This document shows, in pieces, positions 25,381 to 64,000 of a stretch of DNA of 64,000 nucleotides; positions within the stretch are counted from its first letter, which is position 1, and the number at the start of each line of letters is the position of its first letter. The notes under the pieces were generated by a model. It saw only the letters and a list, made by a program, of their open reading frames with translations, did no database searches and was not told the DNA's origin. This DNA comes from Rhynchobatus australiae. Its lineage: Eukaryota. Location: the NCBI GenBank assembly GCA_034780895.1, contig JAUZTB010000001.1:72464337-72528336 (forward strand). Direction: 5' to 3'. The position numbers were made by a program, and so were the translations under genes.

Positions 25381-25685
25381 TCCTGCCTTTCCCCTCCTCC
25401 CCTTAACCTCTTCCTTTTTGTTCTTTATTTTTCCTTTTGATTCCTGTTCTTCTCTTGCATCCTCATTCCTCCTTTTACTTGTCCATTCCACAGTGGCCTC
25501 CGCATTGGTATTCCGTGCTTTGGTAAAGACCGTGATGCTGTTTCATGGCACATTGAGCAATCGTCTGTTCTCTTTGTAAGCTGTGGCCAGAAGGATTTTG
25601 AGAGGAGCTGTGCAGGTTTACTGGTAACTGAGTGAATGGTAGCCAATGCCAGCGAGCCTAAACTCTTCTTTTTAATCGTTTTCAG

Positions 25686-25975
25686 ATGAATTAAACAGTA
25701 ACGATGCAAAACCAGGTAACCCATCCTTCCCAGGGTCTGAGAGCGACCCTGAGAACTGGTTTTCCACATTCCAGGAACTTACATCAGCCATGCAAACTGC
25801 TCAGCACCCAGACGCCTACAAAAAACTGGTGGCAACCATGGCCTACACTGCAGGGATGGCCAAATTTGCCAGCGGAGAGGAACGCAAAAATTGGACAGAT
25901 TTATTCATAGATTCTTTTAAAATGGTTTACAGCAACCTAACAGGGAACGTCGACAAAGCAATGGGGCTGTGCTAG
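25686..25975 (+). CDS. col6a2: Alternative terminal exon of collagen VI alpha-2 (C2a-type tail, 96 aa, replacing the C2 VWA domain)
   Basis: Strong acceptor ctcttctttttaatcgttttcag|AT in phase 1, compatible with exon 22337-22375. Open frame (D)ELNSNDAKPGNPSFPGSESDPENWFSTFQELTSAMQTAQHPDAYKKLVATMAYTAGMAKFASGEERKNWTDLFIDSFKMVYSNLTGNVDKAMGLC-stop. It resembles the recalled human isoform 2C2a tail (..YTAERAKFATGVERQDWMELFIDTFKLV..ALALC). Confidence 0.88.
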
Positions 25976-31180: not shown

Positions 31181-31770
31181 AGCTGGCCGTCGCACCGTGC
31201 ACGCAGCGTCCGGTGGAGCTGGTCTTTATGGTCGATGGCTCGGAGCGGATGGGCGAGACCAACTTCCGTCTGGTGCGCGAGTTCGTGCAGAAGGTGGCGA
31301 ATGAGTTGCCCCTGGCCACAAGCGACAGTGACGTGTCCAGGGCCCGCCTCGCCGTCCTGCAGTATGGTGGTGAGGCGGAGCAGCAGCTGGTCTTCGGCCT
31401 GAGCTATAACCTGACCGATATCCTGGACTCCCTGGCTGCCATGAAGTACCTGGACTCGGCCTCCAACGTGGGCTCCGCCATCATCTATGGCATCCACAAC
31501 CTGGTTCAGAGACCCACCAGGCTGGGGTCGGAGCTCTCCTTCCTCTTCATTACGGACGGCACCAGCGGCAGCAAAAGCCTGGGTGAGGCTGTGGACGCCA
31601 TGCGCAAGCATAACGTTGTGCCCACAGTGATCGCGGTGGGCCAGGATGTGGACATGGATGTCCTACTGCAGATAGGGTTAGGGGAGAGGGCCGCCATCTA
31701 CCGGGCAGATGACTACTCCCAGATCCTGCAGCCAGCCTTCTTCGATAGACTCTACAGGTGGATCTGTTAA
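31181..31770 (+). CDS. col6a2: Collagen VI alpha-2 canonical terminal exon, C2 VWA domain
   Basis: tttcacccag acceptor in phase 1. Encodes (E)LAVAPCTQRPVELVFMVDGSERMGETNF...ELSFLFITDG...QPAFFDRLYRWIC-TAA, where RWIC-stop is the COL6A2 C-terminus. The ORF track start at 31009 is intronic. Confidence 0.98.
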
Positions 31771-39605: not shown

Positions 39606-39828
39606 GTGCTTCAGTGCTGGTGGGGCAGCTGTGTCCCAGGGAGAGAAAAAAATTGAGGATTTACTTTAGGAGAAATCTACAAGGTGCATGACATATCTTT
39701 AGTAAATTTGCACACCAATGCATTACTATCAAACTTCTGTTAGTTGCACATTGATAGCATTAATGCACATTTATCTGCAGCCTATCCAACCACCAGTAAT
39801 GGGATCAGTGCAATTGATGAAGATACTT

Positions 39829-39834
39829 TTTATT
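39829..39834 (-). promoter_or_regulatory. Polyadenylation signal of the minus-strand microprotein gene
   Basis: tttatt on + reads AATAAA on -, about 410 nt after the predicted stop codon. Confidence 0.6.
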
Positions 39835-40241
39835 ATTTGTGCACAGGAAGAGGCAGTTGTTTGACAATCTTGGAGCTTCTTTCAGGGAGCAATAAGAGAT
39901 GAAAGACATCTATTTAAGAAGCTAAGCTCTGAAGCTATCTTATGACAGACATCATTAGAAGGAAAGACAAGAAGAGAATCAGGAGACAATCCTTGCCTGC
40001 TGTGGTTACGTTTGAACAGTAATTAACAGTGACACGTTAACCTTACACTTGGTATAAACTTATTCAGGAAGTCTTCTAAGAGAAAAGAAAATCAGAATTC
40101 TGCCAGTAATCAGACAACCCCACATACCATTACACCTAAAGGTAACATTTCCAAGGTAAATGATGCTCAGTAGTCCATGGACCTTCCACATTGATAGGGG
40201 CAATGTCAGTTAAGGGTATGGTCCTCAACCATTGCTCCTGT

Positions 40242-40250
40242 TCACTTCAT
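40242..40250 (-). CDS. Microprotein gene, last coding exon (M-K-stop, then 3' UTR)
   Basis: Minus strand reads tgtcccttgctcttttctag|ATG AAG TGA. Strong pyrimidine tract, phase 0 matching the upstream donor, and AATAAA downstream. Confidence 0.6.
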   Translation of the reverse strand: MK

Positions 40251-40289
40251 CTAGAAAAGAGCAAGGGACAGTGATTAGCAAGCGGTGAC

Positions 40290-41050
40290 AAAAACAGAGA
40301 ATACTGGAAACGCTCATCAGGTAGCAGGCAGTAGGAGGAGGAGAAACGCTGTTAATGTTTCAGGTCGAAAGCCTTTGTCAGAACTGGGAAGGAGAGGAAA
40401 CAAGTTTGTTGTAAGTCGCATGGGGGGTGAAGGGAAGTATGGTGGGATAAAGGGAATATCTCTGATGGACTGAGGCTCAAGCGGCTGTGGGGATAAGCTG
40501 GGGCAGTTAGAGGGTGACGTGTTGCAACTAGTTGGTCAGGGTGTGCTAACGGAGAGGCGAAATAGAATACAAACAAAACTGGGCCAATATCACAGAAATG
40601 AAAGTGGCTATTTCTGCTATTGATAGAGAAAGTGAGTTTCAAGTAGCTGTAGAATTCAATATTGAGCCCAGAGGCTCACCGTGAACCCAGAGAGAACATG
40701 AGGTGTCGTTTCCCGAGCTTGCATTAGCTTCGTTGTGACAATGCCACAGATAGTCAGGTCAGAGTGGGAGAAGGATGGACAGTTGAAATGGCAGGCAACT
40801 GGAAGCTCAGGGCCACTCTTGTGTTCTGAAGACATATGCTCTGCAAAACCTTCACCCAGTTTGTGTTTGGTGTCTCTAGTGTAGAGGTGGCCATGTTATG
40901 AACACCGAATGCAGTGCACTAGATTGGGAGAAGTGCAAGTGAATCACTGCTTCACCTGGAAGGACTGTTTGTGTCCCTGGATGGTCAGAGGGGAAGACGT
41001 GAGAGAGCAGGTACTGTGTCCTCTGCAGTTGCATGGGATATTGAAGTAAG
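40290..41050 (-). mobile_element. Penelope-like element, degraded GIY-YIG region and terminal repeat (intronic)
   Basis: ORF 40944..41153 ends TIQGHKQSFQVKQ. ELPVACHFN follows (gttgaaatggcaggcaactggaagctc on +). Homologous to 7990-8480. Confidence 0.7.
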
Positions 41051-41241
41051 ATGGGGAATGGTTGTTAGGGAAGGAAGAGCAGGCCAGGGGTTTTGGATCA
41101 AGAGCAGACCAATGCCAATAAATGTTGCTTGGCTTTGTCATAAGTACCCACATCCCAAAGCAATGAGCAAATAAATAAAAATAATCCTTGAAAATCTAAG
41201 GAGAAAGAATTTGCTCTAGTAAAAGTGCAACAATCACTTAC

Positions 41242-41453
41242 GTTTCCATGTGACAGCCCACAACTGTTTTGCGTTCCTCCGGGACCACAGCCATGAGATT
41301 TCTGTTGGCTACTGCCACCACCATGGCACTCCCTGTTGCCTTGGTGCCCACAACCTCCACACTGCTTAGGCTTATGTTTTTTCCCCTGCGATTCATCGTT
41401 AGCATGGGGATGACATCCTTCATGATCGGGATGTTCCATCTTCTGACCCTGAC
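41242..41453 (-). CDS. Microprotein gene, main coding exon (212 nt), Gly/His/Cys/Gln/Lys-rich
   Basis: Acceptor ttttacacttcactttcctcgtaaacag| and consensus donor AAC|gtaagtg, phase 1/0. Encodes GQGQKMEHPDHEGCHPHANDESQGKKHKPKQCGGCGHQGNRECHGGGSSQQKSHGCGPGGTQNSCGLSHGN. Confidence 0.72.
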
Positions 41454-41819
41454 CTGTTTACGAGGAAAGTGAAGTGTAAAAGTTGTGGTATCCGATTGTG
41501 TCTGCACTGGGCACTGTGTATGGGCGAGTGACAGACCTCTGTCCCAGTCAGAATGCCTCATTGCACAGGTCGATGGATTGCTCAATGCACTGCAGCCACC
41601 ACTGGGTCAATGCATTGTTCCGGCATGCAGAAGAAAGCATACCACGCAACCAGTGAGTACAGACTATATCTTATAGTTGGCATTACAGAAGGATAAAGAA
41701 ATCACATGAAACCAATACCCCACAATCAGCCCTTTGAAGAAGTATAGCCTGGAAAATCAGGATACTGTATGTATCAGACACTCCACCCCCTTCATTCTAC
41801 AGCAGTTCAGTGATATCAC

Positions 41820-42015
41820 AGAGAAGCAGAGCACAGAAACAGGCCCTTCGGCCCACTAAGTCCATGCCGACCATCATTCACCCATTTACACCAATCCCAC
41901 ATTAATCCCATTTTCTATCCTCCCCATATTCTCATCAACTCCTCCCCCCCCCTCCAAATTCTACTACTCATCCACACCCTGGGGGAAATTTGCCAGTGGA
42001 CAATTAACCTACCAA
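41820..42015 (-). mobile_element. V-domain SINE, 3' half (intronic)
   Basis: acagaaacaggcccttcggcccac...caattaacctaccaa, matching the 34450 and 57315 copies. Confidence 0.75.
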
Positions 42016-42178
42016 TCCTTAAGCCTGGGATCAGAAAGGTAACATACCATCATGGAAGCTCACGTGCCCTAAGGTGCTGGGCATTCCCCAACTAAAGTGG
42101 CTTCTACAGTCCCAATCAACAGGAACTTGGTCTTGGTGATGAATGGTAAGGTGAATTCGATTGAAAATGGAATCTTAC

Positions 42179-42191
42179 CTGGTTCACACAT
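42179..42191 (-). CDS. Microprotein gene, first coding exon (ATG TGT GAA CCA G; whole exon 42179-42210)
   Basis: Minus strand reads ttctgctttatttcag|CTGACCATCACTCTTGAGG ATG TGT GAA CCA G|gtaagat. There is an A at -3, an in-frame TGA upstream of the ATG, and a phase 1 donor matching the next exon. Confidence 0.68.
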
Positions 42192-42265
42192 CCTCAAGAG
42201 TGATGGTCAGCTGAAATAAAGCAGAAATGGGACATTAGCAGTATAATCACACAAACCCTTCATAG

Positions 42266-42550: not shown

Positions 42551-43472
42551 GAGCGGACAGATTGCATTCTGTCTTGCCTGTGCAATATCAGTACAGGGTA
42601 CTCTCAGCCTGGGCTCCTAACCAATTGTGATCAAACCTCAGGCCAGACCAGAGCTGAAAGGCCACAAGACTCCAGCCACCATGTCACCTGATGTCAGCAG
42701 TCAGTGCTGTTGGCAAAGTCATACAAGCTATGCCCACAGCCAACACCGCCTGCTCCTTATGCATGAAGTAATGCAGAGTCACCAACATGTACTTCAACGT
42801 ATAAAGGACTAGAAGAAGACTGACGATTTATAAAACATGGAAGATAAATAAATCATTAATCAGCATAGATAATGAAGAGTTAACCAGCGTGGTGGAGAAG
42901 GGATAGACTAATGTTTATCAAGAACCTTTTATCCCATCAGTAAACACCCATTAAATATATATTCACTGCCTGTCCTTTGATGGTGTGGGTTCAAATCACT
43001 AACATTAACACAAAGCAGGTGTTGAAGAAAACTGGAAATCAGCGGGAGAATCTTATAACACAAGGAGAACTTGCAGCCTGTGCTGGCTGCTTGGGAGATT
43101 CCAGTCCCACAACTCCTATGGCAGAAGCATGAAAAATGCTAGAAATTCACAGCAAGGATAATTAGCTCTGAGGAAGAGGAGAAAGTTTCATCAGACCATC
43201 ACCCAGTGTCCTTTCATCAAGTCATCATTCACACTACAGTCAAGACTCTGCATTGGAACCTCTGGCATCCAAACCTTTTATTTCCTTTTCCACAAACTGG
43301 CAGAGCTCCTGCATATTTTCAGCTGTTTGTCTTTGGATGTCTGGTCACCTGATTTAAACCCTAGAACTCCTTCCCTAACAGCACTCTGGCGGGCCCTCAC
43401 AGAAACACTGCAGCAGTTTACGGCAGTGATTCGAAACCACCTTCCTGAAGGCAACAAGCGCTGGCTGTGTCA

Positions 43473-43546: not shown

Positions 43547-46500
43547 NNNNNNNNNNNNNNNNNNNNNNNNNNNNNNNNNNNNNNNNNNNNNNNNNNNNNN
43601 NNNNNNNNNNNNNNNNNNNNNNNNNNNNNNNNNNNNNNNNNNNNNNNNNNNNNNNNNNNNNNNNNNNNNNNNNNNNNNNNNNNNNNNNNNNNNNNNNNNN
43701 NNNNNNNNNNNNNNNNNNNNNNNNNNNNNNNNNNNNNNNNNNNNNNNNNNNNNNNNNNNNNNNNNNNNNNNNNNNNNNNNNNNNNNNNNNNNNNNNNNNN
43801 NNNNNNNNNNNNNNNNNNNNNNNNNNNNNNNNNNNNNNNNNNNNNNNNNNNNNNNNNNNNNNNNNNNNNNNNNNNNNNNNNNNNNNNNNNNNNNNNNNNN
43901 NNNNNNNNNNNNNNNNNNNNNNNNNNNNNNNNNNNNNNNNNNNNNNNNNNNNNNNNNNNNNNNNNNNNNNNNNNNNNNNNNNNNNNNNNNNNNNNNNNNN
44001 NNNNNNNNNNNNNNNNNNNNNNNNNNNNNNNNNNNNNNNNNNNNNNNNNNNNNNNNNNNNNNNNNNNNNNNNNNNNNNNNNNNNNNNNNNNNNNNNNNNN
44101 NNNNNNNNNNNNNNNNNNNNNNNNNNNNNNNNNNNNNNCTCTACCCCACGCGCCCGTCGCTGTCCCCCTTGTCTCTATCTCTCTCTCTCTCTCTCTCTCT
44201 CGATAAACAAGGAAGTCACACACTGTGTCTATTTTTAAGCTTGGACACATAAAACTTATTTTTGACTGAGTCAATCCCATGAAAATATTTCTTGCTTTTG
44301 TTTGGTGCCATTTTGTCTCCTGGTTACACCTCTGTGTTGGTGCTTTAGGACATTTCATAATGTTAAAGATGTTTCTTCAAGCAGAGTCTTGATTCAACAG
44401 TACACTTTTTTATATTGAAGCTCTTCATTGCCTCACTCTCTATAACCTTCCCCAGGCCAAAACCCACCCTGGTCCCTACCTTCCTACAATTTTGATCCCC
44501 TATCCACAACCCTACATCTTTCTGTTCCATCATTAGCAGCTGTGCCTTCGATTGCTGGACTTTAAACTCTGGTAATCTTTGCATAATATCTTGCCTCTTC
44601 TCACTGCTCCTTAAATCCTACCTCTTTGTTCAAGCCTTTAGTCACCAGGCCTAATATCATCTTGCATAGCTTGAAGTTCAATTTTATCTGAGGATGCTCC
44701 TATGAAGAACCTTGAGATGTCTAACTATGTTCAAAGCTTTAGATGCAAGTTATTGTTGTTCTTACATTGATATTATTTGTTGCAGTCAGCACAATCCAAG
44801 CAGATTCTATTAAGAGTTGCACCACTTTGTGTACAGTTCCCAGCTCCATGTTACATCTTTGTGATGTGATTCAGACTTCCCGGGAAGGACAAAGGTTTCA
44901 TTCTGTTTTTTCAAGTGAGGGCCACACCAAGTTCAGCTGAGCAACCAAATTGCCTTCAGTCAGTCAAGCCATGAAGCCCGCAGGTAAATCTTCTTTTCAA
45001 CTGCCCAGGGAAGGTGGGATCAAAATTCCGCATCCATTATTTTCAAAAAGTAGCAAGATTTACATATTTATTGCATGTTCACATGTGCCAGGAGCTGGAC
45101 CACACGCAACCCAAAATGGCCTTCTGCCTTCAATCCCAGGTTGCACTCACTGGGCATTCCTGCTGGCCCAAAACTCACTAGTGAAAAGATTGGTGAACTA
45201 TTGTGTAATCCACAATTAGTTATGGCCCATTAGAGACTATAATGAATTTGGACTGATATTAATTACAGCCTCGCACTGATTCTTCTGTTCCTTAAATACT
45301 TCTTATATTTGCTTTGGCCTCTCAGCACTTCAAACTTTAAGACTCGCAGAGTCATGGAGTAATACAGCACAGAAACAGGCCCTTCCACACCAACTCCCCC
45401 CCCCCATCCATGCTAGTCCCACATTAACTGTGCTTTTATCCCTCTCGGCCCTCTGTTTATAACCATAGATTGTCTCTTCGACACAAGCCATAAACAAAAT
45501 ATTTAAAATGCCCACTGAGCATTTTAATGTACCCTTGCACAATCTCAGGGCATCCCACAGAGCTGTACGACAAATGAAGTGCTTCTCCGAGGTGCATTTG
45601 TCGTTAAAATGCGGCAGCTCGTTTGTGCACAGCAAGCCCCCAACATCAGATTACATGAAGATTTGATTTCGGTGATGTTTGTTGAGTAATTAGTATTGGT
45701 TGGAATGTCAGGGGCAACACCCTGAATTCTTCTTCCAAACAGGTTGTTCACAGTTACCTGACAGCCCAGTCGGGACCTTGGGTACTTTCAGATGATGACA
45801 TATACTGAAGCAGAGCTCTTCCTCACCACCAGTTAGACTGCTACCATGGATTTTTTTTTGTGCACATATCCCTGGAGTAGGGCTTGACCCCACAGACTTC
45901 AGAAGCCAGAGTGAACCACTAACTGAGCTCCAATGACAAGGTTGTGTCTGCTCATTCCCCGCCATGCCTCTGCTGCTCTTCCCACCTTTAATCTTGTTTC
46001 TTTTATCAGCGCCCCTACTGCATCTTCCTTGTATCCGATATTTCACCTTTCATTTCTCCCCTGCCCCGCTTCAATCCCCACTCTAATAGGTCACTGATCC
46101 TTGATCAGCCAGCTCTCCCAGACTTCAATCCTATATGGAGAGGTCCTTGACTGCAACCTTTCCAACTTCCTCCATAGGACCGTCCTTGAGACCTCCAGCC
46201 CATACCCTATCCTCCCTACTGCCGTCACTCCTCTTCAGTGTTCCTGCCAGGGGAGGATCATCCTGCCCTCTATTGTCCTCTTGCACTTCCATCAACAACA
46301 ACAAAGCTTCCTCCCACCTCCCCGCACAGAGTAAGTTCCCTAGCATATATGGCCTTTTCCCAACTGTGTCCTTATTGTGGCTACAATGATCTGTTCGTGG
46401 ATTCCTTGTTATTGGACCTTTGCCACAATAGGTCAGACCACCCAAACCTCTCGCACTTCCAGGCTCTCTGGTGTCCTCCTCGGCCACTTCTGGGCTTCAG

Positions 46501-49745: not shown

Positions 49746-50664
49746 GATGTCTTACTCTTTAGAGTTAGGATCAAAATCTTTTTATTGGGTGTGGTTGTTT
49801 TTGCTAAAATTAATACTGGGGCTAAGGGGACTTTCCACAGCTACACTATGGTTTATCAGCAACTTCTACTGTAATACACTGATCAAGACATTCAGGTAAA
49901 ACCAGCCTTGGATTCAAAACTAAAAAGATCCAGAAGATAAATTTGGCATTTCTTTGTTTGGCATAATTGAAAAATATACCACTGTGGCCCATGATAAGTA
50001 CATGAATGAAAACAATTCTGACATTACATAATCATTTGTTGATCTATTTTCATGCAGGCTAATTGTAGAATCATAGAATCCCAAAAGCGCACATGAAGAC
50101 CATTGAGGCCATTGTTTCCATGGTGGTGACTTTGTAGACTGGTCCAATTATCCCCACTTCCTCAGACCCTCCAAGCCCAATCCTTCTACCATGNNNNNNN
50201 NNNNNNNNNNNNNNNNNNNNNNNNNNNNNNNNNNNNNNNNNNNNNNNNNNNNNNNNNNNNNNNNNNNNNNNNNNNNNNNNNNNNNNNNNNNNNNNNNNNN
50301 NNNNNNNNNNNNNNNNNNNNNNNNNNNNNNNNNNNNNNNNNNNNNNNNNNNNNNNNNNNNNNNNNNNNNNNNNNNNNNNNNATGTCCAGGATTTTATATT
50401 TTTATTTGATATGTCCAGCTTCTGCTGTAATTCGTTTTTGTATTCCATTAGCCTTTTGAGAAAAGGACAAAATGGGTTCTGACTTCAACCATCTGAACCG
50501 AGAAAGCTCACCTTAAACATTAGCTCAGTCTCTCTATTCACAGGTGCTGTGTGTCCTGTTAAGTGTTTCCAGAATGTTCTGCCTTGTTTCAGATTTCCAT
50601 TATTAGCAGTATTTTGTTTCCCTTTTGATCAGTGAGAAGAAAGGATCTTTATTTGAATGGGGTC

Positions 50665-51822
50665 TAATGGTCTGTCACTGCATAACGGTGGGGTGCAGGA
50701 ATGGTGGGTACCAGTCCGTCACTGTGCAGAACTGGATACAGAAAACACTGTGATCTCCACAATGGTGGGCACAAAAATGCCACTGTGGAACACTGGGGTA
50801 CTGAACTGATGGGTACAGTGCTACACAGCACCAGAACTGCTCCCACCAGAATTATACCCCAGTGTTATAATGTGAGAGATCTGTACCCACTAATGTTACA
50901 CAGTAGCAGACCTATCCCCAGCAATACTGTACCCAAGAGTTATGCAGTGACTGACCTGTACATCCACCAACACTGAAACCCAGTTTTACACAGTGATAGA
51001 CCACTATCCACCACTACTGTAACTCAGTGTAGCAGTGGACCTGTGCCCACCACTAGCGTAGCCCAGATTTATACAGCAACAGACCCATCCCCACCAGTAC
51101 AGTACCCCAGTTTTACACAGTGACAGATCTGTTCCCACCAGCACTGTACCCCAGTGTTACACAGGTACAAACCTGGTCCCCAGCACTATTACATGCAGTG
51201 CCCACTAGTATTATACCTGAGTCTTATACAGTGACAGGCCTGTCCCAACCTGTATAGAATAACAGAGTTGTACAGTGACAAACCTGTCTCCATCAGTACT
51301 GTGCCCCAGTTATACTGTAATATACCTGTACCCAGCACTACTATATCTATTTTGTACAGTGACAGACCCACACCCACCAGGTACTGTACCTGAGCCTTAT
51401 ACAGTGAAAGACCTGCTGCTACCAGTACTCCACACCAGTGTTATACAACTACAGACCCATCACATAGGTACTGTACCCCACACTTATACAGTGACAGATC
51501 CATCCCCAGCTGTCTTGTACTCAAATGTTAAACAGGGACAGACCTGTCCCCATCAGTTCTATACCCCAGTGTTATACAGTGAAGACCTGTCCCCACCAGT
51601 ACTGTATCCCAGTGTTATTCAGTGACAGACACATCCCCACCAGTAACGTATCCCAGTGCTATTCAGTGACAGACTCATCCCCACCAGTACTGTACCTCAG
51701 TGTTAAACAGAGACAGACCTGCCCCATCAGTACTGTACCCCAGTGTTATACAGTGACAAACTGGTGGCCACCAGTATTCTACCCCAGTGTATTACAGTGA
51801 CAGACCTGTGACCACCAGTACA
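50665..51822 (+). repeat. ~41-bp minisatellite array (consensus about ccagtactgtaccccagtgttatacagtgacagacctgtcccca), with an inverted segment at its left end
   Basis: More than 20 diverged head-to-tail units from about 50830 to 51822. The stretch 50665-50820 holds reverse-complement units (ggtctgtcactgcataac, aacactggggtactg). Confidence 0.9.
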
Positions 51823-61759: not shown

Positions 61760-62620
61760 GAAATTCATGGATGCCCCCTCTGGTGTCAGGAACACTGGCA
61801 TTTTATTTGGGACCGGGCAACTCACAGAGAGATTTTGGTCCACCATGTGGATGCCCAGACCCACAAAAATACAGAGGACACTATACACAATGCCGCTGTG
61901 GACCAGGCTGCCCAAATATGCTCCAGATTAAACCAACCTCAGTGCTTTAGCTGAGTGGGCACACCGCAAAAGTGGGCATCTAGGGGCCGATGGTACATGG
62001 TGTCGGGCGCAGCACAATTCGGGGTTGCTCTGACATTGGATCAATGTAAGACCAGTGTTGCTAACTGCCGTATCTGTCAGCAAGTGAAGCCACGAGGTTG
62101 GCCAGCAGGGCCGCCGGGTCGCATTTGCCGCGGCGCGGGAGTGGGTCACATGTGGCAGATTGACTATATCGGACCGCTCCCACGCCAAAACAAAAAGCAG
62201 TACGCCCCAACGATGGTGGACACATACTCCAGTGTCCTGGTGATGGTGAGAGGGCTGACCAGAATAGCACCATCAAAGGATTGCAGCACCTCTCCTCCAT
62301 CTATGGAGTCCCATGGGAGGTACAATCCGATCAGGGCTCACACTTTGCTGGGGCTAAAGCCCAGAACTGGGCTGCTGAGGTGGGGCTCTTGTGGCTGTCC
62401 CACATACCCTATCACCCACAGGCATCAGGCCTGATTGAGAGAATGAACGGCCTGCTAAAGAAAAAATCTGCACGCTAACGCCCTCCCGCACACTGCAGGG
62501 GTGGTTGAGCGTGCTGCAGCAGGCTGTCGACCAGTTGAATACACAGCCCACTGGCCAAGGGGGGTCCCCACTGTCCCGCCATCTGGCACACTCCCCACCT
62601 GCCGACTTGGAAGACACCGA
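61760..62620 (+). pseudogene. pol: ERV pol 3' part (RNase H C-terminal half and integrase), frameshifted
   Basis: PLWCQEHWHFIW..ILVHHVDAQTHKNTEDTIHNAAVDQAAQI; WAHRKSGHLG and CRICQQ (HHCC); WQIDYIGPLP; MVDTYS; VQSDQGSHF; HIPYHPQASGLIERMNGLLK (D,D35E). Confidence 0.93.
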
Positions 62621-63153
62621 ACCCCCTGAGACTGAGGACTCAGGGAGAGTATGGGTACNNNNNNNNNNNNNNNNNNNNNNNNNNNNNNNNNNNNNNNNNN
62701 NNNNNNNNNNNNNNNNNNNNNNNNNNNNNNNNNNNNNNNNNNNNNNNNNNNNNNNNNNNNNNNNNNNNNNNNNNNNNNNNNNNNNNNNNNNNNNNNNNNN
62801 NNNNNNNNNNNNNNNNNNNNNNNNNNNNNNNNNNNNNNNNNNNNNNNNNNNNNNNNNNNNNNNNNNNNNNNNNNNNNNNNNNNNNNNNNNNNNNNNNNNN
62901 NNNNNNNNNNNNNNNNNNNNNNNNNNNNNNNNNNNNNNNNNNNNNNNNNNNNNNNNNNNNNNNNNNNNTGAGACTGAGGACTCAGGGAGAGTATGGGTAC
63001 AACAGCCACAGGGTCCCCCTCACGCATGGTCCTGGAGACACCTGTTGGGTCGTGATTCCGGGTCACACTAATCTGTCCTGTCTTCATACCTGACACCTGA
63101 CCCAACTAGAATGAACCTGTTCCTCAACCACCCCCCCACGCCCTACAGTACAA

Positions 63154-64000
63154 TGGCATTACTCCAGTCATCCCTTCTGTTCACTGCAATGATCGGCATC
63201 GGGATGTCAACACCTTCTTCAGAGTCACTTCTGAAATTTCCAGCACCACTGCTGGATCCCAGCACACACCAATGAAGCTCTGCCACTTACGCCATTCCTG
63301 CTGGATGACTTTCAGATAAACTGTTTACATAGACCTTCTTGCTCCTGTGAGGTTTGGCATATCTGTTTGGGGTGGGGGCCAAATGGCAGTCCCCCACCTC
63401 TCCCCTCACCACTACATAACATCCCCTTCAGCAATCCCTGATGGGGTGGGTGTTTCAGGAACTGGTATTTCCCTCTCTACAATTTAACCTCCATCCAGGT
63501 CCCGACTCTCAGGATCATTCCACAGCCGATGAGCAGACCTAAGGAATGCTGGTGCAGGCTCCTGATTGAGCACGGTTCCACCCTTTCAGTTGGTCACGGC
63601 GACTGCGAGCGAAACTGGTATCCAGGTGCCCCAGTGAGTACTGCTGATAAGCTGGGGGCTCGCTGGAGTTTGAACGGGACCCACTGGATTTTGCCTACCT
63701 GTGGCCCCCATGAGCTGGTATGGTTGCTGCTTTCCAGCGTTTGTGGTGCCCTATATCCACGCCCTAGATGACCTTGGGAAGCACCAGGCATACAGCGGCC
63801 ACTGGGACAAGAGGGCCATCATGGAGGCAGAGAGTTATTGGATGATAGCCTTTCCCACATATGGCATGGCCCGATTGTCCCATGAGGTCATCCAGATGGC
63901 CAGTGTGCTCGAGACGCTGGCCAATGAAATGGCAGTGGCACTGCCACACGCCGAAAACGCCCTGACACAGACGGCAGCTGAGTTGACTACAGTCAGGATA
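63154..64000 (+). pseudogene. env: ERV env remnant (SU end and start of gamma-type TM), truncated by the window edge
   Basis: Hydrophobic MALLQSSLLFTAMIGIG start and WSLNGTHWI. Then, in a shifted frame that is open to 64000: SWYGCCFPAFVVPYI...HWDKR|AIMEAESYWMIAFPTYGMARLSHEVIQMASVLETLANEMAVALPHAENALTQTAAELTTVRI. Confidence 0.75.

Follow-up and report, generated by a model that had tools for sequence, protein, structure and literature searches.

A candidate spliced gene for a 77-residue Gly/His/Cys-rich protein between col6a2 and mreg in a ray genome

Does the minus strand behind col6a2 in this ray encode a small protein of its own, and what could such a protein do? The stretch of DNA that was analysed (the window, 64,000 nucleotides, C1:72464337-72528336 of a 2.23 Gb genome) holds three minus-strand exons that can be joined into one short reading frame. 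The observations described below suggest that they belong to a real protein-coding gene. On the strength of the sequence features this is very probable, and the gene is likely to be restricted to a cartilaginous-fish lineage and apparently undescribed. No published work on this gene or locus was found in a literature search whose coverage left most subscription journals outside.

The exons join in phases 1 and then 0, giving a 234-nt frame of 77 codons and a stop (Table 1). The original prediction had listed three exons with matching phases, strong splice sites, an ATG with A at -3 and an upstream in-frame stop, and an AATAAA about 410 nt past the stop codon. All of these are present in the sequence, the splicing itself being predicted. 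The five splice sites fall in the top 2% of AG and GT sites in 264 kb when scored with a generic splice matrix: the acceptors stand at percentiles 99.3, 98.1 and 99.4 among 33,741 sites, and the donors at 99.9 (ATG exon) and 98.0 among 26,816. The ATG exon has stops in all reading frames except that of the ATG, and is thus a start exon and not an internal coding exon. Codon 10 is a second in-frame ATG in good context, situated within the main exon, and a 68-residue product starting from it is also possible. A further possible acceptor, at 42257, precedes the ATG exon by 47 nt. Two other acceptors for the last exon, at 40383 and 40075, were rejected. With either of them the protein would likewise stop after no more than a few codons, and the one at 40383 is inside a high-copy repeat.

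A non-coding first exon had been proposed further upstream, at a position that could not be given. A candidate is now found, still unproven: the TATA match at 42832 and the donor at 42687 would define a first exon of about 115 nt followed by a 477-nt intron. Since such TATA matches are frequent, at 0.5 per kb per strand, this one may be due to chance, and a gap of 592 N at 43547-44138 could conceal the true first exon. The region 42600-43400 is single copy in the genome. A POU-type motif match is found at 42766 on the minus strand, inside the candidate exon.

Table 1. Features of the new gene and its neighbours (positions in the window unless stated otherwise)
Feature	Position	Strand	Remarks
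Candidate promoter and non-coding first exon	42688..42832	-	TATA match 42832; donor 42687 (97th percentile); putative
ATG exon	42179..42210	-	32 nt: 19 nt untranslated and 13 nt coding; ATG at 42191; phase-1 donor
Main coding exon	41242..41453	-	212 nt; single copy
Last exon	39810..40250	-	Two codons and stop (40250-40242), then ~430 nt of 3' UTR; exact 3' end predicted
Polyadenylation signal AATAAA	39829..39834	-	Begins at 39834, 408 nt after the stop; the sole one within 577 nt of the stop
col6a2 last coding exon (VWA domain)	31181..31770	+	Neighbour, convergent with the new gene
Two melanoregulin (mreg) exons	~86 and ~94 kb, window-extended (L009:2360-2614, L009:9718-9807)	+	Pfam, in 200 kb of neighbouring sequence
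Fibronectin type I exon	~250 kb, window-extended (L025:6243-6368)	+	Pfam, in 200 kb of neighbouring sequence

The predicted tail-to-tail arrangement with col6a2 is correct: col6a2 stops at 31770 on the plus strand, and the order along the locus is col6a2 (+), the new gene (-), mreg (+) and an fn1-type gene (+). The last coding exon of col6a2 matches collagen VI alpha-2 of Mobula at 88%, of Hemitrygon at 84% and of a skate and two sharks at 80%, and outside elasmobranchs at no more than 65%, which points to a cartilaginous fish, most probably a ray, as the source. The tail-to-tail partner of human COL6A2 is FTCD, and human MREG and FN1 are on another chromosome. Unlike in this human arrangement, col6a2 is here linked to mreg and a fibronectin gene, and ftcd is not adjacent to it, lying 5.5 or 14.8 Mb away.

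Several other elements of the surrounding sequence deserve mention. A stop-terminated open frame of 99 codons occupies 25676-25972 (+), between the penultimate and the last VWA exon of col6a2. It has no Pfam match and is absent from the long ray col6a2 isoform. We take it to resemble human COL6A2's alternative terminal exon, C2a; if the resemblance is true, the C2a isoform predates the divergence of cartilaginous from bony fishes. A 144-nt candidate exon on the minus strand (L017:1327-1470) is found between mreg and the fibronectin gene; its splice sites are strong, and its open frame is hydrophilic and has no Pfam match. The region ~61900-64000 (+) is provirus-like: an integrase-core match below the Pfam cut-off (E 0.00018) spreads over two reading frames, with an assembly gap behind it, and then come open frames that look like an envelope and have no Pfam match. 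A degenerate array of short repeats, about 1.1 kb long, is found at 50650-51800.

The main exon stands out by its composition. The 264 kb contain a single run of at least 60 codons that lacks stops and F, W, Y, I and V, at 41242-41457, and this run stops at the donor of the main exon and starts 4 nt before its acceptor. The expected number of 70-codon runs free of stops and of F, W, Y, I and V, with no more than one Leu, is 1.8e-7 on both strands of the 264 kb, a figure that overstates the rarity because the test was framed after the composition was known. Hydrophobic residues (L, I, V, F, W, Y) make up 1.4% of the main exon, and the next lowest value among 37 candidate internal exons of at least 40 codons in the 264 kb is 14.9%. 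Synonymous codon use is varied, with each of the four Gly codons occurring, and Tandem Repeats Finder detects no tandem DNA repeat in the exon; the bias does not, therefore, come from a simple DNA repeat. Frame 0 is open in this exon as well, since T occupies just two of the 70 second positions of the real frame. Frame 0 was rejected as the coding frame: the repeat conservation described below would sit on its third positions, and it has no credible family match. Selenoprotein read-through of the TGA was rejected as well, as there is no Rfam match, SECIS included, in 32000-64000.

The internal architecture of the main exon carries the argument further. It is built of three and a third decayed 63-nt repeats, each encoding 21 residues, which start at 41451, 41388, 41325 and 41262. 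The first unit begins with the first full codon of the exon, and a Gly-Cys pair occupies positions 12-13 of each full unit. At a lag of 21, 13 of 49 residues are identical (P 0.025) and the BLOSUM similarity has a P of 0.012. The 10-11-residue repeats of the original prediction are not significant (10 of 60 residues at a lag of 10), and the main period is 21 residues. At the DNA level the identity at lag 63 is 43.5%; codon shuffles give 29.7% (P 0.022, all in-frame lags considered). No lag is significant in the second half of the protein (P 0.36). The repeat units agree at 25, 24 and 15 of 49 pairs at codon positions 1, 2 and 3, respectively, the shuffled means being 13.0, 18.0 and 12.6 (P 0.00015, 0.044 and 0.25), and nine of the 13 identical residues use different codons. 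The third positions are thus at background and the first and second are kept, which argues for selection on the protein in the Gly/His/Cys frame. Read in this way, the codon pattern shows that constraint acted on the protein after the triplication; such constraint is past, and present constraint is not proven by it. The repeat architecture is new, and a codon test of repeat against repeat can confirm genes that have no relatives. Together with the splice sites and the composition run, this test gives good sequence support to the proposal of a small spliced gene that has no assigned family.

The gene is single copy. The main exon, the last exon and the upstream region have one genome match each, and the read depth over the main exon is flat at 5-6 in two DNA runs, in which the intron repeats reach thousands, up to 118,000. 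A transposon or other repeat, which would be present in many copies, was rejected on the single genome copy and the flat depth. The main exon has two weak genome matches (E 0.54 and 5.5), which are interrupted by stops and resemble intergenic or repeat DNA, and no paralogues were found in the 264 kb around the gene. Membership in a known gene was also rejected: none of 148 minus-strand open frames of at least 52 codons, from col6a2 to ~79 kb, matches Pfam, a scan that shorter exons would escape. These 148 come from a set of 175, in which one frame had been scanned earlier, three cross stretch borders and the 23 nearest to mreg were left out.

The protein searches used the 70 codons of the main exon, whose low complexity weakens all of them. 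They gave no match among proteins of 38-123 residues, four candidates among longer proteins with none scoring, and no match in 1.84 billion cluster representatives, in Pfam (E up to 10) or among PDB sequences; the ESM Atlas was blank, a result that speaks neither for absence nor for novelty. The searched collection does include annotated ray and shark proteins, and col6a2 finds its matches there. The family, which had not been recognised from the letters, is not recognised by these searches either. Orthologues may either lack a protein annotation or be too diverged for word-based or composition-corrected searches. A missing orthologue could mean that the gene diverges fast, that it is annotated as non-coding, or that it is young or dead. 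In a DNA run labelled as coming from a second organism, a single 817-nt contig covers the main exon and shows 33 differences and six gap letters (~96% identity); the greater part of the last exon is covered too, at 30 differences over 614 nt.

The 77-residue product contains 17 Gly, 9 His, 8 Gln, 7 Cys (at 2, 18, 36, 39, 47, 60 and 69), 7 Lys, 5 Pro and one Leu, and no F, W, Y, I or V; the recount agrees with the numbers first given. Gln, Lys and Cys account for 22 of the 77 residues, Gly and His for 26, and His and Cys for 16. The calculated mass is 8.0 kDa, the pI 7.7, the GRAVY -1.54, the net charge about +1 and the charge-hydropathy index -0.25. A hydrophobic stretch is absent, and hence also a signal peptide, as had been stated, and a membrane anchor. 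The product is therefore predicted to be cytosolic, and it is also predicted to be disordered.

What might such a protein do? The reading tentatively favoured here, with somewhat less than an even chance of being right, is that of a disordered protein of the cytosol that is cross-linked by transglutaminase and through disulfides, and that serves as a structural filler where cells, most plausibly those of an epithelium, differentiate terminally. Once a real coding gene is granted, a cross-linked structural role comes close to an even chance, by analogy with known proteins. The gene would be transcribed from the TATA promoter with its short non-coding first exon, and the message would then be translated. 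Transglutaminase would join Gln to Lys, the Cys residues would form disulfides, Gly would keep the chain flexible, and His may contribute Zn or Cu bridges. The peptide would thereby be fixed to keratin filaments or to the cell envelope.

This role was chosen because of the Gln, Lys, Cys and Gly content, the marks that cornification proteins have in common, the occurrence of one or more transglutaminase-core matches in this genome, and the existence of TGM1 homologues, in shark among others. The common marks are the lack of a fold, low complexity, repeats and Gln, Lys and Cys content (PMC13487633), and TGM1 homologues are reported for all examined species except tunicates (PMC11152450). Cornification proteins rich in His, Gly and Cys occur in lampreys (PMC12101200) and archosaurs (PMC5827346). 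Genes of the SEDC type were sought by an ATG 20-25 nt past an acceptor (PMC4245816); the ATG of the new gene, 19 nt downstream of its acceptor, comes close. The original proposal of a cross-linkable epithelial structural protein would fit published features of cornification by its composition. The gene is single, while cornification genes come in clusters (PMC13487633), and almost all fishes lack a cornified layer (PMC10707392), which counts against the role. The lack of Tyr, the presence of just five Pro and the lack of an orthologue among annotated ray and shark proteins also count against it.

The same composition also fits metal binding and sperm proteins. A cytosolic buffer for Zn, Cu or Ni, in which a disordered chain folds on the metal through mixed His and Cys ligands, metallothionein-like without being a metallothionein, is unlikely, although 16 of the 77 residues are potential ligands of these two kinds, aromatic residues are lacking, and His and Cys are closely grouped (C18-H19-H21, C36-C39-H41, C47-H48, H58-C60). 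Nematode metallothioneins do use His ligands, but the Cys content of 9% contrasts with the 20 Cys in 60-63 residues of vertebrate metallothioneins (PMC4101491). A conventional metallothionein gene exists on C27 (C27:40411935-40415033). This gene has five metal-response elements in the 832 nt upstream of its exon 2, within ~110 nt, and serves as an internal control, whereas none occurs in 1,336 nt upstream of the ATG exon of the new gene; the position of the new promoter is itself predicted, and that promoter may lie beyond the gap. The proposed metallothionein-like function is thus weakened by the seven Cys in place of 20, the absence of Cys-X-Cys, the missing elements and the true gene elsewhere. 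Metal binding by the peptide stays plausible, and the role of a metal-induced buffer is less so. Small mammalian sperm proteins rich in Cys, Gln and Lys, such as SMCP, become disulfide cross-linked late in sperm maturation, and a structural protein of the spermatid or sperm that behaves likewise is quite unlikely here. Testis-specific expression is frequent among orphan genes that are short, present in one copy, quick to diverge and Cys-bearing, and the failure to find an orthologue at the protein level agrees with this; the net charge of about +1, on the other hand, is not that of a protamine-like DNA binder, and Pfam gives no sequence link to any sperm protein.

The arrangement might also be a relic, that is, a once-coding exon in a non-coding transcript or silent locus, or else the work of chance. 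The lack of a homologue, a first exon that is only a candidate and the open frame 0 would all agree with this, as would the fact that the repeat signal reports past and not present constraint. Against it, an intact frame, five good splice sites in phase, the start context and the poly(A) signal survive together, and the openness of frame 0, which has no family match, follows from the scarcity of T at second positions; a relic is accordingly given only a small probability. A marginally smaller one goes to some other cytosolic role, either as a disordered adaptor or as an unconventionally released antimicrobial peptide of the Gly/His-rich type found in insects and plants. The 26 Gly and His residues recall the latter by analogy, but there is no signal peptide, the charge is near neutral, and amphipathic and aromatic residues are lacking.

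The favoured reading, a cross-linked filler of a differentiating cell, can be carried one step further. Low-complexity cross-linked epithelial proteins are described as having arisen independently four times in vertebrates, namely as the EDC of tetrapods, the KRTAP of mammals, the KRTAPL of cyclostomes and the AEDC of amphibians (PMC13487633). No description of such proteins in sharks or rays was found in the literature. It is conceivable, if doubtful, that the new gene is the founding member of a cartilaginous-fish family of the cornification type, independent of these four, which was born by triplication of a 21-residue Gly-Cys-His unit and whose product is hardened by covalent cross-links and His-bound metal in a specialised ray epithelium. 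If expressed in epithelium, the gene would fill the shark and ray gap and provide a directly testable case of convergence. If it proves to be silent or confined to the testis, it simply adds one to the orphan microproteins. Those of low complexity are not uncommon, and no new mechanism is shown here. Whatever the role, two of the three coding exons are shorter than 15 nt, and the gene exemplifies those that annotation misses.

A comparison with known families places the gene near several of them and inside none. Vertebrate metallothioneins have three coding exons, and the product resembles them in being small, cytosolic, free of aromatics and rich in potential metal ligands. It differs in its nine His, in the absence of Cys-Cys and Cys-X-Cys and in the lack of a Pfam match, and its seven Cys fall far from the 20 in 60-63 residues of the vertebrate proteins (PMC4101491), so that it does not belong among them.

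The expectation that the gene is not an EDC member is borne out by its locus, its three coding exons and its termini. Its neighbours are col6a2 and mreg and not S100A genes, and the nearest of the four S100 matches in the genome, at C1:63.39 Mb, is 9 Mb away. The model has three coding exons (splicing predicted) without an S100 domain, whereas SEDC genes have one and SFTP genes two after the non-coding exon. The EDC terminal motifs (MSY..QQCKQP or MCSR..CH, and the C-terminal motif) are lacking, just the first two residues agreeing with the MCSR type. The low complexity, the richness in G, S, C, P, Q and K and the repeats are nevertheless those of EDC proteins. The likeness is greatest to SEDC proteins such as EDCH and loricrin: the product is small, of low complexity, rich in G, C, Q and K and repetitive, with an N-terminal Met-Cys and Cys-His pairs, and the gene has a putative non-coding first exon and an ATG soon after the acceptor. 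The Cys/Pro-rich C-terminal domain described for EDCH, the Cys-His motif proteins of birds and crocodilians, is absent here (PMC4245816 and PMC5827346), and the EDC was not found in fishes according to the former.

The KRTAPL proteins of lamprey horny teeth are likewise slightly basic, with short repeats rich in Gly, Cys and His (PMC12101200). Their Gly content of 23.2-36.4% compares with 22% here, just under the lower bound, along with 9% Cys and 12% His, so that the compositions are alike. They differ in size (15-32 kDa versus 8.0 kDa), in having two coding exons rather than three and in being clustered rather than single, and the new protein has no Tyr; no orthologue of KRTAPL was recognised in jawed fishes by the authors (PMC12101200). 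The AEDC proteins are mostly shorter than 100 residues, and they share with the new gene three exons, repeats due to internal duplications and a C, Q, K and G content (PMC13487633). Their genes, however, are in phase 1 throughout, as against phases 1 and 0 here, are amphibian-specific and form a cluster, and the AEDC locus is that of ADIRF, between sncg and glud1, and not col6a2-mreg-fn1, which sets the new gene outside this family too. The new gene may work like the EDC, KRTAPL or AEDC proteins without belonging to any of them.
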